A stretch of 64,000 nucleotides of DNA from assembly GCA_028821455.1 (NCBI GenBank), contig JAPPGE010000049.1, forward strand, positions 24,309 through 88,308, in the 5' to 3' direction. The notes beneath the pieces are model-generated. The model did no database searches. It worked only from the letters and a program-made list of their open reading frames with translations, and was not told the DNA's origin. Source of the DNA: a bacterium. GTDB lineage: Bacteria; Pseudomonadota; Alphaproteobacteria; SP197. Below are positions 43,656 to 64,000 of this stretch, piece after piece. The translations under genes and the position numbers were made by a program. Position 1 is the first letter of the stretch; every line of letters begins with the position of its first letter.

Positions 43656-43990
43656 CCGAGGCGTCGGTCCTCGCCGACGGACCGCTTGTCGACTGGGGAC
43701 CGGTCGAGACACCGCTGGGCGAGCCCGTGTCGCGGACGTCGGGACGGCTCCTTGAAGGCGGGTCCGGCCGCTTCCCCGAGGCCGGGTACTGGCGCTGCAC
43801 CGAAGGCCGCTGGCGCTGCGAAATCGCGCGGAGCGAGTTCTGCCACTTTCTCGAGGGTGACTGCACCTACACGAGCGATGATGGCGCCGTCATCGACGTG
43901 ACCGGCGGAAAGACAGTGTGGTTCCCCGAGGGCTGGAAAGGCGAATGCCGGGTCCTGAAGACCGTCTCCAAGGTCTACCTCATCGTCTGA
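43652..43990 (+). CDS. Cupin (DUF861/EutQ-like)
   Basis: GYWRCTEG.W, EFCHFLEG, FPEGWKG, KVY; ATGA overlap. Confidence 0.85.
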   Translation: MTEASVLADGPLVDWGPVETPLGEPVSRTSGRLLEGGSGRFPEAGYWRCTEGRWRCEIARSEFCHFLEGDCTYTSDDGAVIDVTGGKTVWFPEGWKGECRVLKTVSKVYLIV

Positions 43991-45294
43991 CCGCCCTCCC
44001 AAGACGCGCCGGGAGCTGTCTTGCTCTCCTTTGCGTCCTGGGGTTCCACGTGTCGGCCTGGGGCTCCGCCACCACAGCACGACTCGAAGAACTCACCAGA
44101 ACCCTTCTGGAGGCGGGCCTCGGCGGGGATGCCATCACCTACCGGATCGCCATCGCGGAAGGGGACGATGGCGCCATCGTCGCAAGTCTCTCGGACATCG
44201 CCGTGGGCGATGCAACCACGCCTCTCGTTGTCGACGACGTCGCCGTCACCTGGAGGCCGGCAGGCGACCGCCTCTACACCGCTACTCTGACAATACCGGC
44301 TGTCAGCGTACTCAATGACGAAGGCGACACGATTGCCAGCCTCACGGCAGGCGGCGGGAAACTCAACCTGCTGGTCCACATCGATACCGGGCTCCTCAAA
44401 TCCGGCACCATGGACGCCACCGGCGTGACCGTGTCCCTGGCCGGGGGCGCGACCATGGTCCGCATCGACCACCTGGCAGCGTCCGTGATTCCCGAAGAGA
44501 CCGCACCTGCAACCTGGGCGGGTCAGGCTCAACTTGACCTGGTCGGGCTAGCCGTGACGGGAGATGACGGGACGGCTGTCGCGCTGACCCGCGGCCGTGC
44601 CGCCGGATGGTTCCGCGACATCCCGGCGACACCGGTCCTGGGAAGCCTGCCCGAAGGAGCCTCCCTCAGGGGCGAGGTAGCCCTGGAGGACCTGTCCGCG
44701 GCCGGCGGATCCGGCTTGCGGGCCGGCATGGAGTCATCCCTCCTGGAGTTCACCGTGGCGGGCACCGGCGGCGACCTCGGCTCCATCGCGCTCCGCTACA
44801 GCCACGAGGGTCTCGCCCTGGAGGACGCCGGCCTGGCGCCGGTCGTGCCACGGTCGCTCGCTGGCGACGTGAACCTCGATGCCGTGCCGGTCGCCGACCT
44901 CGTCGCGGCCTTCGACCGCCCGTTCGCAAGCAGCCTGCCGGAAGGCGCCACGCTCGGCCTTGAGCTGGACTGGACATGGCCGGACGGCGCCGGCAACGCC
45001 AGCGGCCGGCTCGCCTCGGCGCCTCTCGCACCGGTTCCGGCCACCGGGACCGTCAGGTTCATCACCGGCGGCATGGCGGACCTGGTCGAGAACGTGATCG
45101 CGGCGGCCCATGCCGGCAATCGCCAGGCAAGTCACCTTGTCACCTACCTCGCTCTCTTCAGGGCCATGGGCCGCCACGACGAGACGCAGGCAGAGCCACG
45201 CCTCGTCCACGACATCGAGCTGCTGCCCGACAACAGGATCCTGGTGAACGACAACGACATCAACATCCTCCTCAGCCTGCTGGGAGCCGACTGA
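43918..45294 (+). CDS. Exported hypothetical protein, paralog of 45457-46959 (true start uncertain, possibly near 43987)
   Basis: Signal-like N-terminus; colinear similarity to the neighbouring ORF. Confidence 0.7.
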   Translation: MVPRGLERRMPGPEDRLQGLPHRLTALPRRAGSCLALLCVLGFHVSAWGSATTARLEELTRTLLEAGLGGDAITYRIAIAEGDDGAIVASLSDIAVGDATTPLVVDDVAVTWRPAGDRLYTATLTIPAVSVLNDEGDTIASLTAGGGKLNLLVHIDTGLLKSGTMDATGVTVSLAGGATMVRIDHLAASVIPEETAPATWAGQAQLDLVGLAVTGDDGTAVALTRGRAAGWFRDIPATPVLGSLPEGASLRGEVALEDLSAAGGSGLRAGMESSLLEFTVAGTGGDLGSIALRYSHEGLALEDAGLAPVVPRSLAGDVNLDAVPVADLVAAFDRPFASSLPEGATLGLELDWTWPDGAGNASGRLASAPLAPVPATGTVRFITGGMADLVENVIAAAHAGNRQASHLVTYLALFRAMGRHDETQAEPRLVHDIELLPDNRILVNDNDINILLSLLGAD

Positions 45295-45456: not shown

Positions 45457-46959
45457 CTATTGCATCGCGTCTTCCAGCACCGGACCTCCCATATCGTTGC
45501 CGTTGAGCAGGATGCGGCCTTCCGGAGTGAGCTCGAGGTCGTAGACGTGCCTTACCGCGCTGGCCTCCTCGACGCGCCGGCCCATCGCCTGCATGGCCGC
45601 GAGCACTTGTGCGGTCTCCTGCGCTCCGGCATCGCCCGAGGCCGCCATGCCTGCCAAATGCTCTGCGAGGCCGTCGAGGCCGAGCACCTCGAGCCGCGCC
45701 GTGCCGACGGCCATCATGGGCGACTGTCCGGATGCGGTGAACCGCCCGGCAAGGTCCGCCCGCAGCGCGGCGCTCTCGTAGCCCAGACGCTCGATTTCGA
45801 ACACGCTCCCGGCCCGCAGTACGTGCTGCAGCGCGAGCATCCCGAAGTCCCGGGCATCGAAGGGGACGAGGTCGTTGAGGGCGTTCCGAAACATGTCCCC
45901 GCCCAGCACCGCCAGATCGAGGGAGGGGAGATCGCGGAACGCCAGGCGCAGGTCGACGTCATGGGGCACGAGATCGCCCTCGAGGCTCCCCACCGGAACG
46001 GTGAGACCGGCGTGGCCGTACTCGACGACGAAGGAGGCAGCGTCGGTGTCCAGCCCCTCCATCACCGTGCCAAAGTTCACGGCGTCGAAACTGAACTCCT
46101 GGAGCGAGTCGGGATCGCGCAAGAAGAAGTCCGACAGGTCGACCGTCATGGACACGCTCTCCATGAGAGGCGCCCGCGCCATGGCCAGATCCGCGAGCCG
46201 AGCAGCGGTCTCCTCCATCCAGTCCTCGCCCGGCGGTTCGGTGCCCTCTATCTCCTGGAAGGCTTCGGTGGCGGCGGCGAGGAAAACGAGGTCCCAGCCG
46301 CCATAGGCGACCTCGGCATCAAGTCGCGCGAGTCCGAGCCCGTCAAAGCCGTTCAAGGCGAGCCGGACGCCCTCGACGCTCATGGAGCCAGGGCCGCTCC
46401 ATTTCCCGTCCCGGTCTTCCTGGAGCGACGACCGCAGCGCCACCTGATCGACGGAGAACCGAAACTCCCCCTCGTAGGGAAATGTTCCGTGGAAGATCAG
46501 GTCCGTGAAGAGGCAGTCGGAGTCGGTCCAGGCGTCGACGTCGGGAACGTAGGACCCGACGCACCGCTGGCTGCCGAGAGAGGTACCGCCGAGCAGGGCG
46601 CCCCCGTCGTCGTAGAGCGACGTGGTCCGGGGCAGACGCAGCGTCGAGCGGTAGCGGTCCGGACCGTCCGGAACCAGATCGAGTCCCGCTTCGCCGATCG
46701 CCCAGACGAAGTCGGGTCCGGAAAGAGCAATGTCGCGCACGACAAGCGAGATGGCACCACCCGCGTCCTCGCTCACGTCGACGACGTAGCCGACACCACC
46801 GCCGTTGCGTTCCAGCTCGATCGAGATCTGGTCCATGAACCTCTCGACCTGCTGTCGCAGAAGCGAGGCCGCGTCGGACTCGTCGGCCGTGACCTGCGCC
46901 ACGGCGGGAGAGGCTGCCAGGGCCGCGCACAGGAGAAGGGCGGAAATCGACCGGGTCAC
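45457..46959 (-). CDS. Exported hypothetical protein, paralog of 43918-45294
   Basis: Clear signal peptide (AVA-Q); acidic beta-rich body; shared C-terminal motif. Confidence 0.78.
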   Translation of the reverse strand: MTRSISALLLCAALAASPAVAQVTADESDAASLLRQQVERFMDQISIELERNGGGVGYVVDVSEDAGGAISLVVRDIALSGPDFVWAIGEAGLDLVPDGPDRYRSTLRLPRTTSLYDDGGALLGGTSLGSQRCVGSYVPDVDAWTDSDCLFTDLIFHGTFPYEGEFRFSVDQVALRSSLQEDRDGKWSGPGSMSVEGVRLALNGFDGLGLARLDAEVAYGGWDLVFLAAATEAFQEIEGTEPPGEDWMEETAARLADLAMARAPLMESVSMTVDLSDFFLRDPDSLQEFSFDAVNFGTVMEGLDTDAASFVVEYGHAGLTVPVGSLEGDLVPHDVDLRLAFRDLPSLDLAVLGGDMFRNALNDLVPFDARDFGMLALQHVLRAGSVFEIERLGYESAALRADLAGRFTASGQSPMMAVGTARLEVLGLDGLAEHLAGMAASGDAGAQETAQVLAAMQAMGRRVEEASAVRHVYDLELTPEGRILLNGNDMGGPVLEDAMQ

Positions 46960-47545
46960 GGAGGCCTCCCACGGGTGGGGATGCGATCCTGAAGGTTAGG
47001 GCATGGAGCCCTGGTGCGACAACCCCGCACGCACCGCCCGAAGTGGGCCGCCCGGTCGCCGACATCGGCCGGGAATCGGCGAACAACCGGTTCCACCTCC
47101 CTGCGGATGACGTCGATCACGGCCACTCCCCGCTAGTAGGCAACCAGGCTTCGATGCACCAGGAGGCCGTCCAGGCGCAGCAATTCGGTGTGAACCACCA
47201 GGTCACCTCCTATAGAGGCACCACAACTGACAACGACCCTGCTTTCCCTCTCGCCAATAGAGCACATTATCAAAGTGTTGAATGGCGCGTCAACACCCTT
47301 GTGGCCCGGCTCACATGACCGTATTTCACTGGCACTCCTCGTTGGAGGAGTTGCATTTCCGGAACGCGACATTACGTCACGGGCAATGCCATGACGAAGC
47401 ACCACTTCTGCCATTGTACGAACTTGTTGCGAAGGCAGACCTACGGTAATTTACGCAGGAACACCAAACCAACGGAATCCGTCATGGTCCTGGTCGTCGG
47501 ACCTTTGCACGAGGAGGGCGAACGCCATTCCATCAGACCCCAATA

Positions 47546-47669
47546 TGACCACAACACGCGATCCTCCGGCAACCACAGGACACACCTTGCAGACACCATA
47601 CGACTGACCACATTTTGACCATACCATGATCCGGATGTCACCATCCAGCCTGACCACAACATGACCTCA
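47546..47669 (+). repeat. Cluster of TGACCA direct repeats upstream of the RHH genes
   Basis: TGACCACAACA at 47546 and 47651; TGACCACA 47605; TGACCATA 47616; TGACCTCA 47662. Confidence 0.65.
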
Positions 47670-47678
47670 GGAGGAGCC

Positions 47679-47981
47679 ATGAACGACGCACCGAGGAAGC
47701 AGCGCGCGGTCATGATGACCGACGCCGAGTGGCAGGACCTGAAGGAGAGCGCGACCGCCGCCGGAATGCGCGTCTCGCCCTTCATCGTCCACCGCCTCGC
47801 CGCCCTGCGCGGCGACGACGGGGATGCCGACATCGCCGACACCCTGGCCCGCATGGAACGCTCCCTGGCCTGTCTCGAGGAGATCGAGCGGCTGCGCCAC
47901 GCCGGCGATCCGCAGACCTGGAAGACCATCGGCGAGCGGGTCGATGCCCGCCTCGCCCTGGAGCGGAGGCTGGGCGGATGA
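47679..47981 (+). CDS. Ribbon-helix-helix/MobC-like protein 1
   Basis: AGGAGG RBS; RAVMMTDAEWQDLKESATAAGMRVSPFI matches the MobC RHH pattern. Confidence 0.75.
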   Translation: MNDAPRKQRAVMMTDAEWQDLKESATAAGMRVSPFIVHRLAALRGDDGDADIADTLARMERSLACLEEIERLRHAGDPQTWKTIGERVDARLALERRLGG

Positions 47982-48286
47982 CCGGCGAGCGGGCCCGGCA
48001 GAGGAGCTACTACTGCTCGGCGAAGCAGCAGGCGATCATCGTGAAGCGGGCGAAGAAGGCGGGCATGACGAGATCGGCCTTCATGGTCGCCTGCGCACTC
48101 CACGACGAGCCGGTGGGCGCCGAGGCGCTGGCGAGCCGCGCCGAACAGAAGGCCCTTCTCGAGCAGATCCAGGCCGCCGGCGAGGCGGCGATGCGCCTCA
48201 ACGCGCCTCTGCCGGATCTCGGCATGACCGTCATCGACGCGCTTGAGGTGCTGTGCCGCCTGAAGGGCCAGGAGGCGGCTCCGTGA
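47978..48286 (+). CDS. Ribbon-helix-helix/MobC-like protein 2
   Basis: RSYYCSAKQQAIIVKRAKKAGMTRSAFMVACAL; ATGA overlap. Confidence 0.72.
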   Translation: MTGERARQRSYYCSAKQQAIIVKRAKKAGMTRSAFMVACALHDEPVGAEALASRAEQKALLEQIQAAGEAAMRLNAPLPDLGMTVIDALEVLCRLKGQEAAP

Positions 48287-48720
48287 CGCGCCGTCCGAAG
48301 AGACCGGACAAGCATTCGCTCTCCTGCACCGACGAGCAGTGGGAGAGGATCGGCGCCCGGGCGTCCCGTGCCGGCATGCCGACCTCGGCCTACCTCGTCC
48401 AGGCCGCTCTGGCGGTCGATCCTACACGGGCCAAAGTCGATGTCGCCCGCGCCATGGAACTCCAGCAGGAGATCGCGGACGCCGCCCGGCGGATCGTCGC
48501 GCACCTTCCTCCGGTGCCGCCAGAGACGGCGGCATCGTTCTGGACGACCCTCCACGACCGCATCTCCTTCATCGTGCGCATGACGATGAACGACATGCTG
48601 GCCCAGGGGCGCCGCGGCGAACTCGAACGCCACCTCGACCGCCAGTTCGGCGCCGGCGAGGGTGCTGCCAGGGTCGCCTCCTACCTGGAGCGCACGGGAC
48701 GCGACGACATGCCGGAGTAG
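48283..48720 (+). CDS. Ribbon-helix-helix/MobC-like protein 3
   Basis: HSLSCTDEQWERIGARASRAGMPTSAYLVQAAL; GTGA overlap. Confidence 0.75.
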   Translation: MTRRPKRPDKHSLSCTDEQWERIGARASRAGMPTSAYLVQAALAVDPTRAKVDVARAMELQQEIADAARRIVAHLPPVPPETAASFWTTLHDRISFIVRMTMNDMLAQGRRGELERHLDRQFGAGEGAARVASYLERTGRDDMPE

Positions 48721-48948
48721 ACCGTTTTCCGGAAGTGTCGCCGGCCACCACAGGAGAGCTCAGCCCGCCGTCCGGTGGGGCTATGTCAACAAGGGTGACC
48801 GTGCGGCACACACTGGTGATCCGATATCAGACGCGGATGCCCGAGAGTGGGGTGCCGTCCCCGGGGTCGAGTGGAAAATGCGCATGGCATGCATCTCGAA
48901 CAATGGGGGGGTGCGAACATCCTCCCCGCCCGGAGCCGGAATGCGCGA

Positions 48949-49551
48949 TCAGCGTGCGGATCTGACCGCAATGGCCAGCCCGGAAGCCCAGGCCACCTCG
49001 ACCACCGTGCAGTCCGGCCGCTGCTTCAATGAGGCCAGCAACCCGGCAACTCTCTTGCCATGACCATCGGGCCAGTTCCCTTGTGGCAGCATGTCGTCAA
49101 CGACATAGATGCCGCCGGGACTCAGACGCTCCCAGACGCTCGAGAACTGCACGTACTTGCCCGGGATGGCGTCAGCAAAAATGAGATCGAACGACAGGTC
49201 TGCGTTGGCTTCCAGCCAGCCTATGGCGTCTGCGACGACAAACCGCACTCTCGGATCCTGGCCCAGAATTCGTTCCGCCACGGCCACCACGTCGCGATCG
49301 GTGTCGATCGTTTGGAGCAACGAGGCGCCGTCCATGCCGTCGAGCAGCCAGGCAGTGGCGAGTCCCGTGCCGGTTCCGATCTCAAGCAGTCGGCCTGCCG
49401 GCTTGCTGGCGGCCAGAACACGCAACAGCGCCCCGGTGTCGCGCTCGCTCGGCATGCCAAAGCCCTGCCTGGCGGTTGCCTCCTCGATTGCCGTGAGCTG
49501 TGCGGGCAACCGCATGCCGGCGTTCTCGTGCATCGCAAAATCAACTCTCAC
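48949..49551 (-). CDS. Class I SAM-dependent O-methyltransferase (start uncertain)
   Basis: LLEIGTGTG, FDLIFADA..GK, L.PGG.YVVDD. Confidence 0.85.
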   Translation of the reverse strand: MRVDFAMHENAGMRLPAQLTAIEEATARQGFGMPSERDTGALLRVLAASKPAGRLLEIGTGTGLATAWLLDGMDGASLLQTIDTDRDVVAVAERILGQDPRVRFVVADAIGWLEANADLSFDLIFADAIPGKYVQFSSVWERLSPGGIYVVDDMLPQGNWPDGHGKRVAGLLASLKQRPDCTVVEVAWASGLAIAVRSAR

Positions 49552-49557
49552 GCGCGG

Positions 49558-52500
49558 TCACATGGAAAGACCGCGACCGCGGCTCTGCGACCAGGACTGC
49601 CGGCGCCTTTCCTCCTCCTGGCGTTCCCGTTCCAGTCGCACGGAATCGTCCGGCTCGCCATGGGTGGTCCGCGTCTTCTCGAAGCGGGCGATCATCTCCT
49701 CCAGGACCTGCCGCGTATCCGCGCCGTCGTGGAGAACCACGGCAACGTCCCGGTCGCCGCCGGCCAGAATCGTGCGGACCCGGTCTTCCAGGTTCCGGGA
49801 CTCGTCGCACCACACTTCCCAGGCCAGGCTCTGCTGCAGGGTGAGGTCCTCGCGCCGTGCCCGAGCCCCGAGGAACAGCGTGTCGCCGTCGTGGGCCTTC
49901 AGATCGTCGAGAAGGCCGGCGACCTTGTTCCGGGTTTGCATGAGTGCCTGGTATCTGTTGATCTCGCCGCGGAGCGCCACGCGCCGCGGGTCGTTCTCCT
50001 TCAGGCCCGCGTCGAGGCGCTGCATCTCGGAGACGATCCCGGCGTACTCGTCCGTCATGGCCGGATGCACGGCGGCCCCGGCCCTGACCGCGTTGTCGTG
50101 GAGACGCAGCAGCAGCCACCCCGGCAGACCGTCGAGGCGGCCGCTGGCCGCAAACTCAGCCCCGACGCGCCGGGCCACGCCCGTCTTGTCGAGGTGAGCG
50201 AGCAGCGCGGCGTCGGTGGCATCGATGTCGGCCGCCACCGCTGCGGCTGCATCCCGCCAGCGCTTCCAGTCCCTGTTGAAGCGGCGGTTGAGCGGCCGGG
50301 ACTTCTTGCCCTCGCGCTTCAGCAGGGAGCGCCGCATGACATCGACCTCCCTCGCCCGGACGATGAGTTCGCTCGCCCGGGCATGGGCCCGTTCGTGCTC
50401 GGCCAGCCGTTCGAGCGCGGGTTTGAGAACCTGGGGCATCATGGCGTGGAGGGGTGAACCGGCCTGAAGCGCGTTGAGCTTCGCCGCCAGGGCTTCGCCC
50501 CTGGCCCCGAGGAAGGGGTTCGTTTGCCTTGTCGGACGCCGGGTGGTCAACCATGCGTGGACAACTTCGTAGGCGCGCTTTTCGAAGGCGATGAGGTCCT
50601 CGAGGACCGCCGCCCTGTTCGACAGCAGCGGATCGGCCTGGCCGGGGTCCATCGCCGCCCGCCAGGTGTCGAGGGCCTCCCGGGTCTCGCGGCACCAATC
50701 GGCGATGTTCGAAAGCTGACCGGCCGTCTCCCTGGCTGGCGCGTGGCAGGCACGGTAGTCCTCGAGGGCGCGCTCGATCCGCGCCGCCGCCTGGTCGCGT
50801 TCCGCGATCCACGCCTCGTGGCGGCCGAGGGCGCCAAGCGCCCGCCGGAGCGACGGCAGCAGCTCCCCATGGCGCGGCAGACCGGCCTCGAGAGCGCGCA
50901 GGTCCCGGGCCAGGGCTTCGCCGCCGGGCGTCAGGAAGGGGCGCATCGTGGCATGGGTGATGACGGCGCGGCTGGCATCGTTCCACCTCACGCGAAGATC
51001 GCGGGCGCGTTCCTCGAAGGCGATGAGATCCTCAAGGACCGCCGCCGTCTCCGACAGCGCCGGAGCCCGTCCGTCGGTCTCCGTCAGGGCGCGCCAGGTC
51101 TCGATGGCCTCCCTCGTCCCGTCGCACCAGGCGCCGAGCTCTTCCACCTGCTCAAGGAGTCTCTCGCGGATGCGTTCGTGGCACGCCGCGTAGTCGTCCA
51201 GGGCGCCTGCCACCACGGCGGCCGCGCGCTGGATTGTCTCGTTCCGGGCGACCGCTGATCCGTGGTCGTCGAGGTCCGCCAGCGCCTGCCGGAGGTCGGG
51301 CAGCAGCACCCCGTGGCGAGGGAGAGCGGCTTCCAGCGCCTTGAGGTTCCGGGCCAGGGTTTCGCCTTCGGGTGTCAGGAAGGGCGACGCCAGAGCGCCG
51401 GCGATGCCGGCCAGGACGGCGCCGTTCCACCGGTTGAGAAGGTCCCCGGCGCGTTCCTCGAAGGCGATCAGATTCTCAAGATCGGCGGCCATGGCCGCCA
51501 GCGCCGGATCCCTCATCTCCGCTTCCGTCAGGACCCGCCATGTGTCGATCGCATCCCTGGTCTCAGCACACCAGGCGCTCAAGTTCCGGACCTGCTCACG
51601 GGGACTCTCGCCGACATGCGCGTGGCGGGCGGCATAGTCGTCGAGGGCTCCGGCCACCGCGGCGACCGCGCGTTGCCGCTCCTCGTTCCGGGCGAGCGCC
51701 GTCTCGTGGTCGTCCAGTTCCCGTGAGGCCTGCCGCAGGACGGACAGCATCACGGCGTGATCGGGGACATCGGCCTCCAGCGCACGCAGGTCGGCGGCCA
51801 GGGTCTCGCCGTCAACCCCGGCGAACGGATTGGCCGTGCGATCGTCGCCCCTGGCGTTTCCCAACCTGACGGCCAGATCGAGGGCGCGTTCCTCGAAGGC
51901 GACGATGCCCTTGAGGATCGCCGCCGTCTCCGACAATGCCGGATCCATCTCGCCCGCCGCCGTCATGAACTGCCAGGCTTCGATGGCCGCCTTCGTCTCG
52001 CCGCACCATGCGCTGATGACGGAGAGCTGCCTCGCCGAGTCATCCATCGGCTGGTGGCAGGCGCGCCAGGCGTCGAGACCCCGTGCGATGGCAGCAGCTG
52101 CGCGTTGCCGCTCCTCGTTCCAGGCGACTGCCGTCTCGTGATCGTCGAGTTCCCGGGACGCCTGCCGCAGCGCGGGCAGCATCGCGGCGTGATCCGGAAG
52201 ACCGGCCTCGAGCGCTCGCAGGTCCGCGGCCAGGGCATCGCCGTCAACCCCGGCGAACGGGTTGGCCGTTCCGTCATCGCCCTTGGCGTTCCGCAGCCTG
52301 GAAGCCACGTCGAGGGCGCGTTCCTCGAAGGCGACGAGGTTCTCAAGGTCAGCGGCCATGGCCGACAGCGCTGGATCCCTCTCGTCGGCCACCGTCAGGG
52401 ACCGCCAGGTCTCGATGGCCGCCTTCATCCCGTCGCGCCACACCCCGATGCCGGAGAGCTGGCTGGCCGTGTCATCCATCGGTGCCTGACAAGCGCGATA

Positions 52501-55500
52501 TGCGTCGAGACCCCGTGCGATGGCGGCCGCCGCCGTCTCCCGTTCCGCGCTCCGCGCCCGGTGGCGGGCGAGGATCGCTGTCAGAACCTCAAGCGGTTCC
52601 TCGCCCTCGGGTGGGTCGCCGGCGAGTTGGCGGATTCGCGTGAGAAGCGGTTCACCTGCGCCCATGTCGACCGCGTCCACGCCCCGGGCGCGCGCCTCGG
52701 CCTCGAAGACGGACCAGTCGGCGACCACCGCCGCCGCCTCGTCGTCATGATCGAAGGCTTGCGTGAGACGGAGCATGTCGTCGAGACCGCGCTGTTCCCG
52801 CATCCCATCCCGGACCACCGCCTTCGGAAAGTCGGCGCTGGCGGCCTCGGCCCGTTCCCGCCACGCGGCGTAACCGGCGAGTGCATGAAGGGGCCCGCCC
52901 TGCGCCTCGGCCCTCAGCGCCTGCCGCTCGTCCTCCACGGCGTGAAGTGCCTGTTCCGCCCGGTCGAGCCGGGCCACGATTTCAGCCTCGGCCCGCGCCG
53001 CCGCCTCGTCCTCTGCCCGGTGCGCCGCCGTGACCTCGTCCAGGAACGAGGGGAGACCCCGGGGAACATCCGCCGGACGTGGGGCCGTCTCCACGAGGGC
53101 CCGGCCGCGGGCGACCAGCTCGCCGATTCCGGGATGGAAGGCGACGTCCTCTCCGGCCGCGCCGGCCTCCCGCACATGGCGCTGCAGGTCACAGGTGAAG
53201 GCGTCCAGGCGGTCGTCGAAGGCCACAAGACTCGCGAGGAGATCCGCCTTGCCGGCGCCGCCCTCATGACTGCCCGCCTCGTCGCGCCACGCCTCGACCG
53301 CCGCCCGCGCCCGCCCGCGCCATGCCGCGTGGTCCGCCTCGACGGCCAGGGCCGGGGTCGCTTGAAGGCCGGGACGGCGGCCGGCCAGCGCCTCGCGTTC
53401 GGCGAGACGATCGTCGAGACGACTCTCGATGGCAGCGCGGACTTCCTCATTCCAGGCCCTCGCGTCGCCCAGGACCTCTGGCGGAACCGCGTCCTTCGCC
53501 ACCACGGCCACCTCCGGCGCATCGTCCCGGAACTGCTGGCCGATCGCCTCGAGAGCCGAGAGCTCGTCTCCCGTCGCCGTCTCCAGGGCCTCCACCAGGC
53601 CGTCGCGGTCGTCGGTCAGCAGCACCGCGTTGTCGCGCGCCCGCGTCAGCTCGACGTAGAACGCCGCCTGGCCGGCGATGGCGCCCTGGTTGGCGTCGAG
53701 AACCGCGATCACCTGGTCGCAGGTGATCCCCTGGGCCGCGTGCACCGTCGAGGTCCAGGCATGGTCGATGAAGTGAAGCTGGGAATCGTCGTGGGCCATG
53801 ACGAGATCGCGGCCGTCGGCGGTGCGAAGCCTCAGGTTCTTCCGTCCGATGGAGAGGATCCGCGCCTCCTCGCCGTTCAGAAGCGCGCGGTCCCTGTCGT
53901 TGCGCGTCCAGCGGATCTTCTCGCCGGCCTGGAGTTCGATCGTGTCCGTCTCGAAGAGATCGACCCGGTAGCGCAGATACTTCGACGGATCGGCCCGCCG
54001 GGTCCTGCCGTCCGGGTGCTTGAGCAGAACCTTCTCCTCTTCCGAGCCGATCACCTCGAAGATGTCGCCCGACTTCGCCTGGACGCCGTAGACCTGCGCG
54101 TGGAACACTGCCACGTCGCCCTCGCGCCAGTTGGCGAGATCCCCTTTCTGGGCCCGGGTGAGGTGAAGGTTGACGTAGCGCTCCACCTCGATCGTGCGAC
54201 CGTGGAGGCTCCCTTCGGCCCTCAGGCCCTCTCGGATGCTGTCGGTGATCTCGCGGCGCAGCAGGTGGGTCGGGGCCAGCACCGCCGTGGCGTCGCGCTC
54301 TGATGCGTCGAGATCGAGCCACAGGGCCGCGGCTCTGGAACCGAGTTCTTGCCCGTCCATCTCCAGGACGCCGGGACCGAGTTCGTCGAGGGCGAGATCC
54401 GGCTTGCCCTCGATCATGTGAAGCACCGCCGCCTTCAAACCCTCGTTGCGCTGGCGCAGCACCTCGTCCATCACCGCCGTCTCCATGCCGGACTTCTGCA
54501 GCACCCGGAAGGGCTGTCCGGCCTCCACCGAGCGCAGCTGCGCCGTGTCGCCCACCAGGGCGACCCGGGCGATCCCCGTCGCCTCGGCGATGCGGGCGAG
54601 ACTGTGCATCTGCGCCATGCTGACCAGCGACGCCTCGTCCACCACCAGGAGCGTGCCTTCCAGGGCCGCTCTGGCCGTCTCGAGGGCCTCCTCGTCGGCG
54701 CAACCGTCGCCGACGTCCCGGTAGCGGGTGAGGAACCATTGCAGCGTCTTCGTGCCGAGCCCGGTCTCGCGGCTGAGCGTGCGCGCCGCGCTGCTCGAGG
54801 GGGCCAGGGCGACGATCCGCTCCGCCCCTGCGAGTTCCACCACCTCTCTCAGCATCGTCGTCTTGCCGGTGCCGGCGTGGCCCTGCACCCCGCAGGCGTG
54901 GCGGGGCGACAGCAGCAGGGTTCGCACGGCCGACTTCTGACCGGCGTTGAGGGCACCGGCGGCGAGGTGGCGCTCGACCTCCGCGGCGTCGATCCCGAAG
55001 TCGCCTGCGGCGTCGCTCTCCTTCTTCATCCAGCGAACGACGGCACGCTCGGCCTTGACCGCCCGGTCGGTGACGAAGGCGAGATCGGAGCGCGCCTTGA
55101 TTGCTTCGACGAGGTGGCCCTCCTCGCGCATCCGGGCGATGGCCGCATCGATCTCCGGCAGCGTCCACTGACCCGGCGCCAGGACCAGAGCCCGCAGCAT
55201 GGTGGCGGTGAAGACCGTGCGCCGCTCCTCGAGATGCTCCACCGCCTGCCTTACTGCGTGAAGCGCCGAGGGAGACCGCCGGTTCGCGGCATCCCGGCGT
55301 CTGAGGTGCCAGCGCTCCAGATCCGCCTGCGAACGGGTCGCCGGGCGGTTGCGGGCGACGCGCCGGTTGCGGGGCTCCATCTCCGCCATCCGTGCCTGCC
55401 AGATGCGGGTGAGCTCCTCGCGCGACGGCTCGTCTTTGCGCTTGCGGGTGTAGAGCACCGCCTGCTGCATCACGGCGGCGGAGGCCGTATCGAGGTTGCG

Positions 55501-56268
55501 TTCCCGCGCCCACGCCAGGGCTTGAGCCCGGCGGGTCGAGAAGGCCCTCAGCGTCGCCTTGCCGTAGCCGGCGATCTCGAAACCCGGCACGCTGCCCACC
55601 ATGGTCTGCTCCGTGGCGTAGCCCAGGGCCTCCAGCCGGCGTTTGAGTTCGCCGCGGTAGTGAGCGCCGATCAGGTGCTTCGCGCGTTCGATCTTGATGA
55701 AGTCGGCGCTTCGCCATTCGCCCTGGCTGTTCTGCGTCATGTTGGCGACGACGCTGTGCGTGTGGAGCTGCGGATCGAGGTTGCGGCTGGCGACGTGGCG
55801 GAAGGTCGCCGCCACCAGGCCATGGCCCCTGATGCGGGGACGCCTGCGGGTCGCCGGGTCCCAGCCCCGGGTCTCCAGAAGCTCGTTCTCGATGAAGTCC
55901 AGCGTCGCCGTCACCGCCTCGTCGTGGGCGCGGATGATCCGGGCTGACGCCTTCGGCGCGGCGTGGACCAGGGCTTCCAGCGATACCGACTTCGGGGCCG
56001 AGAATGTGATGTCGAGACCGGGACGGTGCTCGTGTTTGCCGTCCCGCAGGCGGCCGAGGCGGGTGGTCGTGCCGGGGATGCGGCCGGAGAGGACCTCTTC
56101 GAAGCGTTTGGATTTGACGGGGCCGTGAAGGCCCAGGGCCGCCACGGCCTTGCCGTGCCAACGGCTCGCCTTGCGATGCTCCGGATCGTGTTTGGTGTAG
56201 TAGCCGTCCGCCTCGAAGTAGTGGACCGTCGATGCGGCTTCACTGAGACGGGTGACGGTGGCAACCAT
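49558..56268 (-). CDS. MOBF (TrwC/TraI-like) conjugative relaxase-helicase with a long C-terminal repeat region
   Basis: YFEADGYY, DITFSAPKSVS, H..SRNLDPQLHTH (HUH); helicase GHAGTGKTT, VDEAS, GD..QL, TVHAAQG, YVELTRAR; basic C-terminus RGRGLSM. Confidence 0.93.
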   Translation of the reverse strand: MVATVTRLSEAASTVHYFEADGYYTKHDPEHRKASRWHGKAVAALGLHGPVKSKRFEEVLSGRIPGTTTRLGRLRDGKHEHRPGLDITFSAPKSVSLEALVHAAPKASARIIRAHDEAVTATLDFIENELLETRGWDPATRRRPRIRGHGLVAATFRHVASRNLDPQLHTHSVVANMTQNSQGEWRSADFIKIERAKHLIGAHYRGELKRRLEALGYATEQTMVGSVPGFEIAGYGKATLRAFSTRRAQALAWARERNLDTASAAVMQQAVLYTRKRKDEPSREELTRIWQARMAEMEPRNRRVARNRPATRSQADLERWHLRRRDAANRRSPSALHAVRQAVEHLEERRTVFTATMLRALVLAPGQWTLPEIDAAIARMREEGHLVEAIKARSDLAFVTDRAVKAERAVVRWMKKESDAAGDFGIDAAEVERHLAAGALNAGQKSAVRTLLLSPRHACGVQGHAGTGKTTMLREVVELAGAERIVALAPSSSAARTLSRETGLGTKTLQWFLTRYRDVGDGCADEEALETARAALEGTLLVVDEASLVSMAQMHSLARIAEATGIARVALVGDTAQLRSVEAGQPFRVLQKSGMETAVMDEVLRQRNEGLKAAVLHMIEGKPDLALDELGPGVLEMDGQELGSRAAALWLDLDASERDATAVLAPTHLLRREITDSIREGLRAEGSLHGRTIEVERYVNLHLTRAQKGDLANWREGDVAVFHAQVYGVQAKSGDIFEVIGSEEEKVLLKHPDGRTRRADPSKYLRYRVDLFETDTIELQAGEKIRWTRNDRDRALLNGEEARILSIGRKNLRLRTADGRDLVMAHDDSQLHFIDHAWTSTVHAAQGITCDQVIAVLDANQGAIAGQAAFYVELTRARDNAVLLTDDRDGLVEALETATGDELSALEAIGQQFRDDAPEVAVVAKDAVPPEVLGDARAWNEEVRAAIESRLDDRLAEREALAGRRPGLQATPALAVEADHAAWRGRARAAVEAWRDEAGSHEGGAGKADLLASLVAFDDRLDAFTCDLQRHVREAGAAGEDVAFHPGIGELVARGRALVETAPRPADVPRGLPSFLDEVTAAHRAEDEAAARAEAEIVARLDRAEQALHAVEDERQALRAEAQGGPLHALAGYAAWRERAEAASADFPKAVVRDGMREQRGLDDMLRLTQAFDHDDEAAAVVADWSVFEAEARARGVDAVDMGAGEPLLTRIRQLAGDPPEGEEPLEVLTAILARHRARSAERETAAAAIARGLDAYRACQAPMDDTASQLSGIGVWRDGMKAAIETWRSLTVADERDPALSAMAADLENLVAFEERALDVASRLRNAKGDDGTANPFAGVDGDALAADLRALEAGLPDHAAMLPALRQASRELDDHETAVAWNEERQRAAAAIARGLDAWRACHQPMDDSARQLSVISAWCGETKAAIEAWQFMTAAGEMDPALSETAAILKGIVAFEERALDLAVRLGNARGDDRTANPFAGVDGETLAADLRALEADVPDHAVMLSVLRQASRELDDHETALARNEERQRAVAAVAGALDDYAARHAHVGESPREQVRNLSAWCAETRDAIDTWRVLTEAEMRDPALAAMAADLENLIAFEERAGDLLNRWNGAVLAGIAGALASPFLTPEGETLARNLKALEAALPRHGVLLPDLRQALADLDDHGSAVARNETIQRAAAVVAGALDDYAACHERIRERLLEQVEELGAWCDGTREAIETWRALTETDGRAPALSETAAVLEDLIAFEERARDLRVRWNDASRAVITHATMRPFLTPGGEALARDLRALEAGLPRHGELLPSLRRALGALGRHEAWIAERDQAAARIERALEDYRACHAPARETAGQLSNIADWCRETREALDTWRAAMDPGQADPLLSNRAAVLEDLIAFEKRAYEVVHAWLTTRRPTRQTNPFLGARGEALAAKLNALQAGSPLHAMMPQVLKPALERLAEHERAHARASELIVRAREVDVMRRSLLKREGKKSRPLNRRFNRDWKRWRDAAAAVAADIDATDAALLAHLDKTGVARRVGAEFAASGRLDGLPGWLLLRLHDNAVRAGAAVHPAMTDEYAGIVSEMQRLDAGLKENDPRRVALRGEINRYQALMQTRNKVAGLLDDLKAHDGDTLFLGARARREDLTLQQSLAWEVWCDESRNLEDRVRTILAGGDRDVAVVLHDGADTRQVLEEMIARFEKTRTTHGEPDDSVRLERERQEEERRRQSWSQSRGRGLSM
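50385..52535 (-). repeat. Five tandem intragenic repeats of about 432-444 bp (144-148 aa) in the relaxase
   Basis: Recurring A..LD.Y.AC..W....AI.TW....DP.L...AA.LE.L.AFEERA...PF....G..LA..L.ALEA..P.H. Confidence 0.88.
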
Positions 56269-58415: not shown

Positions 58416-58559
58416 GCTGTCTTGCAGCGTGGTCTTGCGGTTCCGGGAAAGAGCGCAGACAGGGGCTGGATACAGCATCCCGGATCCCGGACTGTCCGGT
58501 CAGGTTCGGTTTCGTCGGCAGACTGTTGATCGAGGTTCATGCGCGAGGGGGTTGCGGGA

Positions 58560-59411
58560 ATGTCACGCCGGTTTCGCCTTGAAGGAGCGGTATCGCGGCC
58601 CGCAGGCCGCATCAACGACGATGCGTTTGACGCGTTGGATCGCATTGCATGGGTACTGGACGGGGCTACGGGCATCTCGCCGGATCGTCTGCTTCCGGGA
58701 CAAGGCGATGCAAACTGGTTTTGCGGCACACTCCGGAAATGCCTGCGGGAGGCGGCCGGCAGTGCGGGATCGAACCGGATCATGTTGGAAATGGCTCTCT
58801 CGAAAACGTCGGCGAGCTTTCAGCGGTTCAAGAAGCGAGAAGAGAAAGACCGGGCCGAATTGCCGGCGGCGAGTTGCGCAATGGCTGCGATCCGGGATGG
58901 TCTCATCGAGATATCGGTCATCGGTGACTGCACGGTGTTTCTCGACGACGGCCATGGCGGCATCGAAAAAATCTCCGATCAACGGGTCAGGCGGTATGAC
59001 GATGCCGTTGTGGACGGGATAGTTCAACTCATGGAGGGCGGGAACGTATCCTATGCCGAGGCGCTGGAACGTGCCAGGTCGACCATTTGGCGTAACCGTG
59101 AAATCCGCAATCGCGATACAACGTATTGGGTGCTCGAGCCAAATGTCGGTTCGCTGAAAGGAGTCATGACATCGACGCATGATCTTTCACGAGCGAAGCG
59201 GCTCGTGATGATGACCGATGGATTCTACCGGCTCGTGGACAGTTATGGCGCATACACCGACGATGGTTTGCTTGAAGCCGTTATGGAACAAGGTTGTCAC
59301 GCGCTTTGCTCGGAACTTCGACAGATCGAGGGAGGTGACACCGAGTGTCGACGATATGTTCGGATCAAGGCCTGCGATGACGCGTCCTGTGTGGTGCTTT
59401 CTGTCGAATGA
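58560..59411 (+). CDS. PP2C-like (PPM) phosphatase domain protein
   Basis: NDD, VLDGATG, IGDC, MTDGF, DDAS metal-binding motifs. Confidence 0.82.
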   Translation: MSRRFRLEGAVSRPAGRINDDAFDALDRIAWVLDGATGISPDRLLPGQGDANWFCGTLRKCLREAAGSAGSNRIMLEMALSKTSASFQRFKKREEKDRAELPAASCAMAAIRDGLIEISVIGDCTVFLDDGHGGIEKISDQRVRRYDDAVVDGIVQLMEGGNVSYAEALERARSTIWRNREIRNRDTTYWVLEPNVGSLKGVMTSTHDLSRAKRLVMMTDGFYRLVDSYGAYTDDGLLEAVMEQGCHALCSELRQIEGGDTECRRYVRIKACDDASCVVLSVE

Positions 59412-61571: not shown

Positions 61572-62297
61572 ATGGACGGGTATTCTCGTGAGGTTTTCAA
61601 GGAACTCAAGCACTACGTTTACCGGTTGGTGGACCCGCGCAATGGGAACACGTTTTACGTTGGCAGAGGGCAGAAAAATCGAGTGTTCGCACATGTTCAT
61701 GCCAGTTTGAAGCCGAGTAGAGTAGACGAGGATGACACCTCGTTGAAACTCGATTACATCAGAGAACTCAATGGGAAGGGAATCGCGCCCATTCACGTCA
61801 TTCATCGTCACGGGCTCACCAGTGACGTGGCAGTCGAGGTCGAGGCTGCGTTGATCGACTGTTACCCCGGACTGATGAACGAGTTGGCCGGTGCTGGTTC
61901 GTTCGCGCGGGGATCGGCGACCGCGAAGGAGATCGAGGAGCAATACGCCGCCACGATCATGGAGCCGGCCAAAGAGCACAAGTTACTCTACATCAAGACA
62001 GGGGCGAGTACCGTCAGGGAGAGAGGCTTGTACGAGGCCGTTCGAGGAAACTGGATCGTGAACGAACGACGAGTAACAGAAGCCGACTACATCATTGCTG
62101 TGGTCGACCAGATATGCAGGGGAGTGTTCCTGGCAGACATCTGGCAACCCACCCCTCACAGGAGAGGACGATATTACTTCCGCGGTCGTGAAGCCCCACC
62201 TGAGGTCATCGATCGTTATCGCGACAAGCGCATACCGCAGAAATATCGAAAAAAGGGTATGGCTGGGCCAGTCGTCTACGGGTGGCCGCAACCCTAG
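61572..62297 (+). CDS. LEM-3-like GIY-YIG nuclease domain protein
   Basis: YVYRLVDPR...FYVGRG..NRVFAH, EAALID, L.N. Confidence 0.82.
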   Translation: MDGYSREVFKELKHYVYRLVDPRNGNTFYVGRGQKNRVFAHVHASLKPSRVDEDDTSLKLDYIRELNGKGIAPIHVIHRHGLTSDVAVEVEAALIDCYPGLMNELAGAGSFARGSATAKEIEEQYAATIMEPAKEHKLLYIKTGASTVRERGLYEAVRGNWIVNERRVTEADYIIAVVDQICRGVFLADIWQPTPHRRGRYYFRGREAPPEVIDRYRDKRIPQKYRKKGMAGPVVYGWPQP

Positions 62298-62446: not shown

Positions 62447-64000
62447 TTATGACTGTTGCCGCCTTCGTTGCCTACTACGCTTGGTTCCTTGCTTCGAAGT
62501 CAACAACGGAGCTTGTCTTTTCTCACGTAACGAAAACAGATGCTCGACGCGCTCACGTTCGGATGCGAAACCGTTGCGCCGGTAGAGCCGGTCCACCGCA
62601 CGGTCGAGGCTCTGATGAGCTGTGCGCAAGGCTGGAGGCATGGCATCTTGGTCGTAGAGTACATCAAGCGGTGAATCCGGAAACTTGGCGCGCGTGTCGA
62701 GAACGGCTTGGGACAACTCCTCTATCCGTTTGCACTGTTTGTCGCTCATCTCCGGCCAAGGGAACGAGTTGTAGACCGATGGCGAGTAGCTGTAGTCGCT
62801 CTTCAGTCGGCCTGCGACCGTCCGCATCCAGGACATATGCATCGCCGACGTGAGAATGCCGAAGTAATGCAGAGGCGCGCCGGGAATGAGCTGGAGCTTG
62901 CTGGATGCAATGACAGTCGGTGGCAGTATGGCAATCGGGATGTACTCCCGCGTCTCCGACGAGACCTCGGGTATCGCGAGATAGTCCGTATCTGGCTGGC
63001 GGTCTTGCGTAAAGAGCGTCGGGTAGCTTGCGAGTTCCCGCACGCCGGCCGTCGGGCTTTGAAGTCGGCCCGAGCGCACGCGCTCCAATCGCTCGATAAT
63101 CGGCTCGGACGCCTTCAGTTCGGAAGGATCTGCACTCTTCAACCACAGGCACCAACGCCATTGGCCGGAGATCAATTCCTCGCCGCCAACATAGGGTTTC
63201 AGCCACTTCTCGCAATTTGGGTCAGCATTCAGAAGCTGCTCGCGGTCACTGTCTTGCAATATCAGGTTGCTGAACTTGAGATAGCCGCCTCCCGGCTTTC
63301 TGAGGCGGGCACCATCGGTCGGCTGGCTGCCCTTGTGCATCGCCGGCCGGCCTTCGGGCGGCTTCGTGCGGGCCGGCACCGCATACTGCGGACCATCGAT
63401 GAGGTAGCCGTTGATGCGGCCAACTTCAGAGACGTGCGGCTCGCCGCGCGGACTATCGTAGTCGTAGAGACGCCTGCGACATTCCTTGGCGAATGTCAGG
63501 CCGACGATGACGCAGTGGACCGCGGCTCTGCCCCGTGCCTCGCTGTTCCACTGAAAGGTCCGGTGAGCGAAGCGGATGGAGAGTTCCCGGGCGAACACGG
63601 CTGGCCACAAGATGCCGCATTGCTCGCCCTGGGTGATCGAGTTGGTGGCGACCAGGGCGATCTCGATGTCGCGGTTGTCTGCTGCATAAGCCGTCGCCTT
63701 GTTGAACCAGCAGGTGACGTAATCGAGGCGGTTGACCTGTCCCGTCCGACCCCAGACGCCGGCCATGTCGCGCTGCTGCGCCTGCGTCCGCCACTGATGG
63801 CCGACGAACGGAGGATTGCCGATGATGTATGAACACTTCTCCGCAGGCAGGAGCGCTTGCCAGTCCATGTCGAGCGCGTTTCCGACTGTGATGTGCGGCG
63901 ACTTCTCTAGCGGGATGCGGACGAAGCTGTGGCCGAACTCGAGGCTCAGCCGGTTATTCAAGATGTGGTCCATCATCCACAGCGCGGTTTCTGCGATGCG
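62447..64000 (-). CDS. MmeI-like (type IIL/YeeA) N6-adenine methyltransferase-restriction enzyme, C-terminal part; 5' end outside the window
   Basis: RIAETALWMMDH, GNPPFVG motif IV, TNSITQGEQ, FAHRTFQW, PEVSSE.REYIP, GRLKSDY.YS, LDRAVDRLY; frame open to base 64000. Confidence 0.9.
   Translation of the reverse strand, partial: RIAETALWMMDHILNNRLSLEFGHSFVRIPLEKSPHITVGNALDMDWQALLPAEKCSYIIGNPPFVGHQWRTQAQQRDMAGVWGRTGQVNRLDYVTCWFNKATAYAADNRDIEIALVATNSITQGEQCGILWPAVFARELSIRFAHRTFQWNSEARGRAAVHCVIVGLTFAKECRRRLYDYDSPRGEPHVSEVGRINGYLIDGPQYAVPARTKPPEGRPAMHKGSQPTDGARLRKPGGGYLKFSNLILQDSDREQLLNADPNCEKWLKPYVGGEELISGQWRWCLWLKSADPSELKASEPIIERLERVRSGRLQSPTAGVRELASYPTLFTQDRQPDTDYLAIPEVSSETREYIPIAILPPTVIASSKLQLIPGAPLHYFGILTSAMHMSWMRTVAGRLKSDYSYSPSVYNSFPWPEMSDKQCKRIEELSQAVLDTRAKFPDSPLDVLYDQDAMPPALRTAHQSLDRAVDRLYRRNGFASERERVEHLFSLREKRQAPLLTSKQGTKRSRQRRRQQS

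Follow-up and report, generated by a model that had tools for sequence, protein, structure and literature searches.

A window of 64,000 nucleotides of alphaproteobacterial DNA (contig JAPPGE010000049.1, positions 24,309 to 88,308) carries, on its reverse strand, the gene of a giant relaxase-helicase of 2,236 residues (49558..56268). Behind the helicase the protein continues with a tail of 1,336 residues, in which tandem helical modules of about 145 residues (144-148 residues) are followed by a non-repeated end. The tail is real, selected and restricted to one genus. It is possible, though in our judgement short of an even chance, that the tail forms a rod that serves as a docking or translocation signal for the coupling protein of a helper. 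To our knowledge, no proteins other than relaxases accompany the DNA in conjugation, and we know of little understanding of how coupling proteins recognise them beyond a few model plasmids. Relaxases that vary in nothing but their number of modules (1-5), the terminal module and the tail being conserved, form a natural, ready-made deletion set for large structured translocation or docking signals.

Relaxase-helicase and repeat array

The open reading frame (ORF) of the relaxase consists of 2,236 codons without an internal stop, and its stop codon lies at 49558-49560. The TrwC/MobF relaxase domain occupies residues 1-300 (55369..56268, reverse strand). In Pfam, PF08751 (TrwC) matched residues 14-297 with an E value of 2.8e-75 and 254 bits against a cut-off of 25; in NCBIfam, the MobF family relaxase NF041492 matched the N-terminus with 242 bits against a cut-off of 100. 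The SF1B (RecD/TraI-like) helicase extends over residues 440-900 (53569..54951, reverse strand), with the AAA_30/SF1 core at residues 440-629 (E 1.3e-46), C-terminal helicase pieces at residues 829-884 and matches to Viral_helicase1 and UvrD_C_2. In the translation, a candidate catalytic tyrosine was read in VHYFEADGYY near the N-terminus and the HUH-type histidine motif LHTH in LDPQLHTHSVV, and the helicase contains both Walker A (GHAGTGKTT, with GTGKT) and Walker B (VVDEAS). Since the two domains and the tyrosine, histidine and Walker motifs are all present, the enzyme looks intact. By its domains, its motifs and the fused helicase, the protein is classified from sequence as a MOBF (TrwC/TraI-type) relaxase-helicase.

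The order of an N-terminal TrwC-type HUH relaxase and an SF1B helicase is the same in TrwC of R388 and TraI of F. The first 900 residues aligned with plasmid MobF genes over 96-100% of their length; the best identities among the matches listed were 33-36%, and no match to a plasmid was as high as 60%. TrwC, with 966 residues, ends soon after the helicase, and TraI, with 1,756 residues, continues with a second helicase-like region and a C-terminal domain of another kind. The initial annotation of this gene had stated that TrwC lacks a tail of the present kind, and the comparison of the tail with 72,556 PLSDB plasmids by tblastn, which gave no match, is consistent with that statement.

The same annotation had described a MOBF relaxase with a repeat extension of about 1300 residues, and the 1,336 residues past the TrwC and SF1 helicase domains of Pfam and NCBIfam agree with it. 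Tandem Repeats Finder gave periods of 432 and 444 nt with 74-81% matches. Five strong units, each with an E value of 1e-67 to 1e-73, were delimited by chunked blastp and a hidden Markov model (HMM) of the repeat. In the order of the protein, and all on the reverse strand, these are R1 (residues 1253-1396; 52081..52512), R2 (1397-1540; 51649..52080), R3 (1541-1688; 51205..51648), R4 (1689-1836; 50761..51204) and R5 (1837-1980; 50329..50760). The first four were found by blastp, HMM and alignment, R1 and R2 being modelled as well; R5 is defined by HMM, alignment, the unit tree and a model. Their computed starts (52512, 52080, 51648, 51204 and 50760) lie 18-30 nt from those originally given for five clear repeats.

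Upstream of R1, the initial annotation had noted about two degenerate units, and both were recovered. D1 (residues 981-1095; 52984..53328, reverse strand) was found with an HMM E value of 2e-5, and of 9e-6 (residues 981-1092) with a later profile built from 63 units of 19 proteins; it was present in 18 of the 19 family members at a domain E value of 0.01 or lower. D2 (residues about 1128-1252; 52513..52887, reverse strand) is weak in this protein (E 0.05) and was seen at 1.8e-5 in a paralogue on contig C16 of the same genome. The HMM of a second, about 130-residue repeat type, described below, matched the D2 area at residues about 1168-1281 (E 7.7e-7).

The motifs W, AFE.RA, PF and P.H, which had been picked out by eye, turned out to be invariant columns of the five-unit alignment (W25, W36, A61-F62-E63-x-R65-A66, P85-F86 and P106-x-H108). 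The pairs R1/R2 (71% identity) and R3/R4 (58%) are indeed the most alike, the remaining eight pairs showing 39-51%. An alignment of two units from 23 sequences contained 35 invariant columns, in which E63, R65, R72 and H125 were invariant and H108 nearly so. The net charges of R1 to R5 are -11, -11, -9, -7 and +2; R1-R4 have pI values of 4.5-5.2, and R5, the ancient terminal unit, is the only non-acidic one. Residues 901-1836 carry a net charge of about -65 over 936 residues, that is, about -0.07 per residue.

The non-repeated helical tail (residues 1981-2236; 49561..50328, reverse strand) is kept in all family members. It contains a three-helix bundle at residues about 2106-2211, a stretch (residues 2141-2198) with a weak partial match to the first repeat HMM (E 1e-3), and an Arg-rich end, RRRQSWSQSRGRGLSM, so that 256 residues separate R5 from the end of the protein. 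Of the basic tail that had been proposed, only the extreme end held: the last 16 residues contain 5 Arg and no acidic residue, whereas the last 30 have a net charge of +1 and the last 50 of 0. The C-terminal motif is conserved in an alignment of 19 rows.

An assembly artefact, considered at the outset, was ruled out, because the copies are diverged and a second assembly (locus L001, 97% identical) has the same five units. At that locus (G008:C1:1312887-1325170), which belongs to a sister genome and whose copy of the relaxase gene is 91-92% identical, the repeats sit in an open frame of just 1,096 residues; a frameshift or an error of assembly has thus split the gene in this copy. The repeat likewise matches no described domain: NCBIfam gave no family for it, and Pfam gave no match past about residue 900 at E values of 0.1 or lower.

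Copy number and evolution

The tail is common to about 22 relaxases, all from one genus, and has 1-5 strong units in them. With the repeat region as query, a word-indexed search of 5.8 billion proteins retrieved 18, all of which have SF1 helicase families and 15 of which have the TrwC relaxase domain; the other three (P0006, P0010 and P0015) look 5'-truncated or interrupted. An exhaustive profile search of 1.84 billion representatives gave only 20 proteins, mostly fragments. At two loci (L003, 2208-12052; L005, 2160-12463) the relaxase gene is split at about residue 900 by a block of about 2.4-3.4 kb; the two blocks have ORFs in common and are probably insertion sequences. These split genes explain the homologues P0006 and P0010, which lack TrwC.

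Copy-number variation among relatives, which the initial annotation had suggested looking for, was found with the repeat HMM. Proteins with 1, 2, 3, 4 and 5 strong units are about 1,653, 1,792, 1,940, 2,084 and 2,240 residues long, respectively, and the other domains are unmoved. In 19 family proteins the frames are open over 0.4-2.2 kb of repeat DNA. In a tree of 63 units, the terminal units of all 19 proteins form one clade and the internal units group by lineage. By this topology the terminal unit is old, and the internal units are products of repeated local duplication.

Identities between the present protein and 18 homologues were 86-94% in the relaxase, 84-90% in the helicase, 48-74% in the post-helicase region and 59-90% in the tail. 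The ratio of nonsynonymous to synonymous substitution rates (dN/dS) was determined for three 4-unit paralogues of one genome. In all three pairs it was 0.02-0.16 for relaxase, linker and helicase; the values were 0.33-0.39 for the post-helicase region, 0.43-0.48 for the repeats and 0.32-0.37 for the tail. The tail is therefore constrained, yet its evolution is three to four times as fast as that of the catalytic parts.

A search with residues 901-1252 found four further, distant relaxases (P0040-P0043; 31-33% identical), in each of which two degenerate units and one clear unit were recognised. The five-unit tail is best explained by amplification of a post-helicase region with three units, which would be ancestral to a genus-level clade of MOBF relaxase-helicases. 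Of the units in the array, two would be old and degenerate, four internal and specific to the lineage, and one old and terminal, with the helical tail behind them.

Predicted structure

A model of two units (residues 1253-1540, from a 23-row alignment) was all-helical with a mean predicted local distance difference test (pLDDT) of 92.8. Each unit showed helices of about 25, 31, 13 and 31(+8) residues, that is, three long and one short, and the last helix of each unit continues, kinked, towards the next. The terminal unit and tail (residues 1837-2236, 19 rows) were also modelled as all-helical, with a pLDDT of 83.5. The tail is thus predicted to be an elongated array of helical-bundle modules, a modular helical rod.

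Foldseek searches of the PDB with both models gave no match at E values of 0.001 or lower, the best being 0.27 and 0.07. The alignment-independent VIA search returned generic helical bundles only among the 50 matches listed per model, from which absence is no proof of differing folds; no BID, TraI or other structure of a substrate of type IV secretion systems (T4SSs) was among these matches for either model. In searches of PDB sequences with profiles A1 and A2, the best match (E 0.0088) was a ribosomal protein, which was taken as chance. The ESM Atlas gave no usable match to the two-unit part, and no family in PHROGs, PADLOC, Pfam or NCBIfam matched the tail. Since no family in these four collections and no sequence of a solved structure matches, and the module occurs in one genus only, it is a new domain. 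No description of a relaxase with a copy-variable tandem helical tail turned up in the open-access full texts searched. No spectrin family was among the Pfam matches at E values of 0.1 or lower. A spectrin repeat is a three-helix bundle of about 106 residues whose helix runs continuously into the next repeat; the present model has three long helices and one short per unit.

Distribution and other repeat-tailed relaxases

Among 61 genomes, comprising the window's own and its relatives, the repeat was found in 8, all of them in the window's genus (8 of 23); none of the 38 genomes outside the genus had it. A set of 185,579 species genomes yielded just 8 loci, and 241 million records from metagenomes just 3. 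Three sponge-metagenome runs, all from one study, contained over half of the words sampled, and no RNA run was among the sequencing runs listed.

The window's own genome (4.36 Mb in 104 contigs, 98.6% complete) has 12 TrwC-domain genes, and three of these relaxases carry the repeat, with 5, 3 and 2 units. A complete chromosome of 4.7 Mb from the genus (G001; coordinates as in G016) has 16 TrwC genes and one broken locus. Other giant MOBF relaxases of the own genome (1,305-2,188 residues) carry different tandem helical repeats past the helicase: a unit of about 170 residues in 3.5 copies (C90:13000-21500, L021), and one of about 130 residues in 6-7 copies (C20:4000-19500, L022, and C13:1-7000, L023) or 2-3 copies (C40:21500-26500, L024, and C90). 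Pfam gave no family for these repeat tails. At the far end of the stop-to-stop frame on C20 there was one AMP-binding match below the cut-off.

In P0040-P0043, the profiles of both the 145- and the 130-residue repeat match overlapping stretches of one unit, offset by about 40 residues, with E values of 1e-14 to 1e-16 and 1e-6 to 1e-9. A direct comparison of the two profiles by hhalign was weak (E 0.019), and the link therefore rests on these double matches and on one match in the present protein. The two repeat types are likely homologous on this evidence. We conclude from the sequence comparisons that a helical post-helicase module was probably ancestral to the relaxase clade and was amplified independently.

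The module and its genomic context

The relaxase belongs to a module of about 8-9 kb, which is present in multiple copies in chromosomes and consists of the relaxase gene, two NikA-like genes and about 430 bp including an oriT-like end. Copies were found in the window (47185-56268), in the own genome (G000) on contigs C16, C54, C82 and C37, and at loci L004, L006 and L008. The two small accessory genes adjoin every relaxase copy on the opposite strand. In the window, the first (48253..48720, forward strand; 155 residues), convergent on the relaxase gene, encodes a NikA/MobA-like ribbon-helix-helix protein (PF21983, E 3.1e-7; NF041264, E 8e-5, below cut-off), and the second (47619..47981, forward strand; 120 residues) is weakly NikA-like (PF21983, E 8.7e-4, below cut-off).

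The conserved module end (47185..47400, reverse strand) was defined by alignment of five copies, a promoter scan and the homology limits. In all five copies it contains, in this order, a 17-nt box, an outward sigma70-like promoter, the imperfect inverted repeat GTGACCtggtGGTTCAC and CACCGA. The promoter lies at 47293-47266 on the reverse strand (TTGACG-16-GATAAT; 10 of 12 positions). The inverted repeat with CACCGA is oriT-like, a putative assignment from sequence. DNA homology of the aligned paralogues extends from the relaxase ATG (56268) to 47185, with nothing conserved upstream. The flank upstream of L004 was found in its own genome only, except for 508 bp that it shares with another relaxase copy; since some pairs share upstream DNA, the start of homology at the ATG holds for the aligned copies and not for every pair. 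Module copies within one genome are 86-88% identical in nucleotides, as against about 79% to copies of other genomes. In two other genomes the left flank is uninserted and reads TCGGTGTGcAgCACCtGGTC where the element end reads TCGGTGTGaAcCACCaGGTC. The module limits and the look-alike flank ends suggest relaxase-mediated integration at pseudo-oriT sites, with the relaxase expressed when the module is circular or in tandem. An empty site in which the two flanks are joined was not recovered, the continuation in the two uninserted genomes being unlike the right flank of the window. No circular junction from module end to relaxase start was among the joints listed for contigs of four metagenome runs, in which contigs are fragmented across the element and rare circular forms would not show.

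The shared module contains no integrase and no coupling-protein gene. VirB4, VirB10, VirB6 and AAA_10 gave no match in the own genome, nor did VirB4 in either of the two related genomes searched, including the complete 4.7-Mb chromosome; the genomes are metagenome-assembled genomes (MAGs), and plasmids may be missing from these searches. The single coupling-protein gene of the own genome is located elsewhere, in a repABC-like region that also encodes a relaxase-primase. This plasmid-like region (C16:1-40000; L019, L020) encodes RepC, ParA and the coupling protein, the last (C16:4945-6255) within an open frame of 1,061 residues, as well as a DNA methylase-HNH gene, a resolvase and a TrwC-helicase of 1,946 residues fused to DUF7146 and a Toprim primase domain; no VirB4 was seen in it. 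This context, with many diverged relaxase-only modules per chromosome and no T4SS genes found, may outweigh the repeats in importance.

Possible functions of the tail

The initial annotation had proposed a co-delivered cargo that acts as an anti-defence decoy, as a DNA coating or as an adaptor for foreign coupling proteins. DNA coating is disfavoured, because the protein is so acidic (see the charge of residues 901-1836 and the pI of R1-R4 above), and the decoy found no positive support. The adaptor would fit the context, since VirB4, VirB10 and VirB6 were not found in the own genome, nor VirB4 in the two relatives, nor a coupling-protein gene in the module.

Our tentative preference is a docking or translocation-signal rod for the coupling protein of a helper. 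Because the minimal module encodes neither a coupling protein nor a T4SS, both must come in trans, and the relaxase-DNA complex would be recognised by a coupling protein and T4SS so supplied. The signal for translocation itself would reside in the conserved terminal unit, the tail and the Arg-rich C-terminus, and the internal units, which are acidic, evolve fast and vary in copy number, would provide extra docking sites or reach. Docking is favoured on account of the position of the tail in the protein, the conservation of these terminal parts, the parallel with BID domains and the lack of transfer machinery in the module. In addition, a constrained but fast-evolving tail is the pattern expected of a partner-recognition surface. 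That the tail binds a coupling protein and that it directs translocation are both what we infer from these features.

A review (PMC6509941) describes one or two BID domains, helical bundles of about 100 residues, in alphaproteobacterial relaxases. According to this review, terminal BIDs are more conserved than non-terminal ones, BID surfaces are mainly positive, and substrates with BIDs usually have a VirB/VirD4 locus linked to them. The present tail resembles the BID regions of TraA relaxases and Bartonella Beps (PMC6509941) in having C-terminal helical-bundle modules of about 100-145 residues, sometimes in tandem, with a more conserved terminal copy and then a basic tail; here the positive charge after the last domain is confined to the last 16 residues, 256 residues past R5. 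It differs in its units of 144-148 residues, in their number (up to 7, against 1-4 in BID proteins) and in the relaxase, which is MOBF, whereas the relaxases described with BIDs are TraA-type. The rod would work like BID-plus-basic-tail or TraI translocation signals without belonging to those families. A precedent for large fusions is the reported activity in recipient cells of Cas fused to a T4SS-transferred relaxase (PMC11513951).

Several observations weigh against the docking rod. PF17841 (BID) was not found in the protein at E values of 0.1 or lower, nor in the six-frame translation of the own genome at 10 or lower. The acidic R1-R4 contrast with the mainly positive BID surfaces, net charge being a proxy for surface here, and no VirB/VirD4 locus was found in the three genomes (MAGs) or at the loci. 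For these three reasons we did not assign the units to the BID family. The occurrence of 1-5 copies among apparently intact genes implies that the internal units are dispensable for basic function. With 12-17 relaxase genes per chromosome and no T4SS genes found, the elements could equally be ones that do not conjugate at all.

Among the other explanations, a purely structural role is unlikely, though it deserves consideration. A spectrin-like array would set the distance of the C-terminal tail domain from the relaxase-helicase or would scaffold the relaxosome, for example by holding another relaxase molecule or the pair of NikA-like proteins, with copy number setting the length. The three paralogues of one genome, however, carry 5, 3 and 2 units, so that no single length is required, and the polar and aromatic positions conserved in every unit (E63, R65, R72, H125 and nearly H108) suggest more than filler. 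We rate as rather improbable an adaptor role in intragenomic mobility, in which the relaxase would integrate the module of about 8 kb at oriT-like sites and the tail would tether a host factor or help in target choice. It agrees with copy homology that runs from the relaxase ATG to the end with inverted repeat and CACCGA, with the uninserted flanks of two other genomes, with a module free of integrase, with the closer similarity of copies within than between genomes, and with the high number of TrwC genes, 12 in the own genome and, besides a broken one, 16 in the complete chromosome, in neither of which VirB4 was found. TrwC-mediated site-specific integration is documented (PMC3264647). On the other side, neither a joined empty site nor a circular junction was seen (within the limits given above), the MAGs may have lost plasmids, and nothing ties the tail, rather than the N-terminal relaxase domain, to integration. 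A co-delivered anti-defence cargo, an acidic rod that would enter the recipient on the DNA and block restriction or other defences, is distinctly unlikely. Entry of a relaxase into the recipient with the DNA is established (PMC11513951), the tail is acidic and fast-evolving, as arms-race proteins often are, and the window copy has gained a methyltransferase gene at its 3' end. Against this stand the lack of any PADLOC, PHROGs, Pfam or NCBIfam match, dN/dS below 1 throughout, and a modest charge density. DNA mimics such as Ocr or ArdA have a charge density far more negative than about -0.07 per residue. Membership in DNA-mimic anti-restriction proteins of the ArdA/Ocr type was rejected, with no family match and only about -65 net charge over 936 residues. 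A functionless expansion, in which the internal units would be neutral in-frame duplications in a non-essential linker, we regard as very improbable. In its favour are the range of 1 to 5 copies, internal units that are specific to lineages and a tail that evolves faster than any other part of the protein; against it, the repeats have a dN/dS of 0.43-0.48 and not about 1, 35 columns are invariant in the two-unit alignment, the frames stay open in 19 proteins, and the models are confident with well-packed helices.

A bolder proposal, also unlikely in our estimate, concerns the whole unit of about 8-9 kb. Such units might be autonomous relaxase-driven integrative elements, in which a conjugative relaxase-helicase would play the part that bacteria otherwise leave to no known equivalent of Helitron/IS91-type rolling-circle transposons. 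Cut at nic beside the inverted repeat and CACCGA, they would express the relaxase via the outward promoter, and hence only when circular or in tandem, and would have multiplied to 12-17 copies in chromosomes in which no T4SS genes were found, with the copy-variable rod as a fast-evolving adaptor to a host or helper factor. The homology limits, from the ATG to the oriT-like end in most copies, raise the idea of an integrative spread that MOBF relaxases bring about themselves. TrwC, of the same family as the relaxase, integrates DNA at oriT-like targets (PMC3264647). Like the iMOB elements described in a preprint (bioRxiv 10.64898/2026.01.13.699239), the unit has a chromosomal relaxase without mating-pair formation genes; it differs from them in spanning the relaxase ATG to the oriT-like end and in its many diverged copies per chromosome. 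Integrative and conjugative or mobilizable elements have an integrase in 81% of intervals according to that preprint, whereas none is found in the module here.

Neighbouring genes

Directly past the relaxase stop codon lies a gene for an S-adenosylmethionine-dependent methyltransferase of 200 residues (48949-49551, reverse strand), with a partial match to PADLOC 'mad2' (E 5e-14). It is an insertion peculiar to the window copy: the copies on C16 and C54 lack it, an 87% identical copy is on C69, and contigs of three metagenome runs join 48688 to 49569 and skip it. On the other side, an MmeI-type restriction-modification gene with methyltransferase, target recognition and C-terminal domains (62447-64000, reverse strand) runs off the end of the window, and between it and the relaxase gene are a GIY-YIG protein gene (61572-62297) and a PP2C-like gene (58539-59411). 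Beside the module end are two ORFs of 458 residues (43918-45294, forward strand) and 500 residues (45457-46959, reverse strand), which have coding-like GC content at third codon positions and no Pfam or NCBIfam match; both belong to a flank that is conserved in other genomes of the genus.

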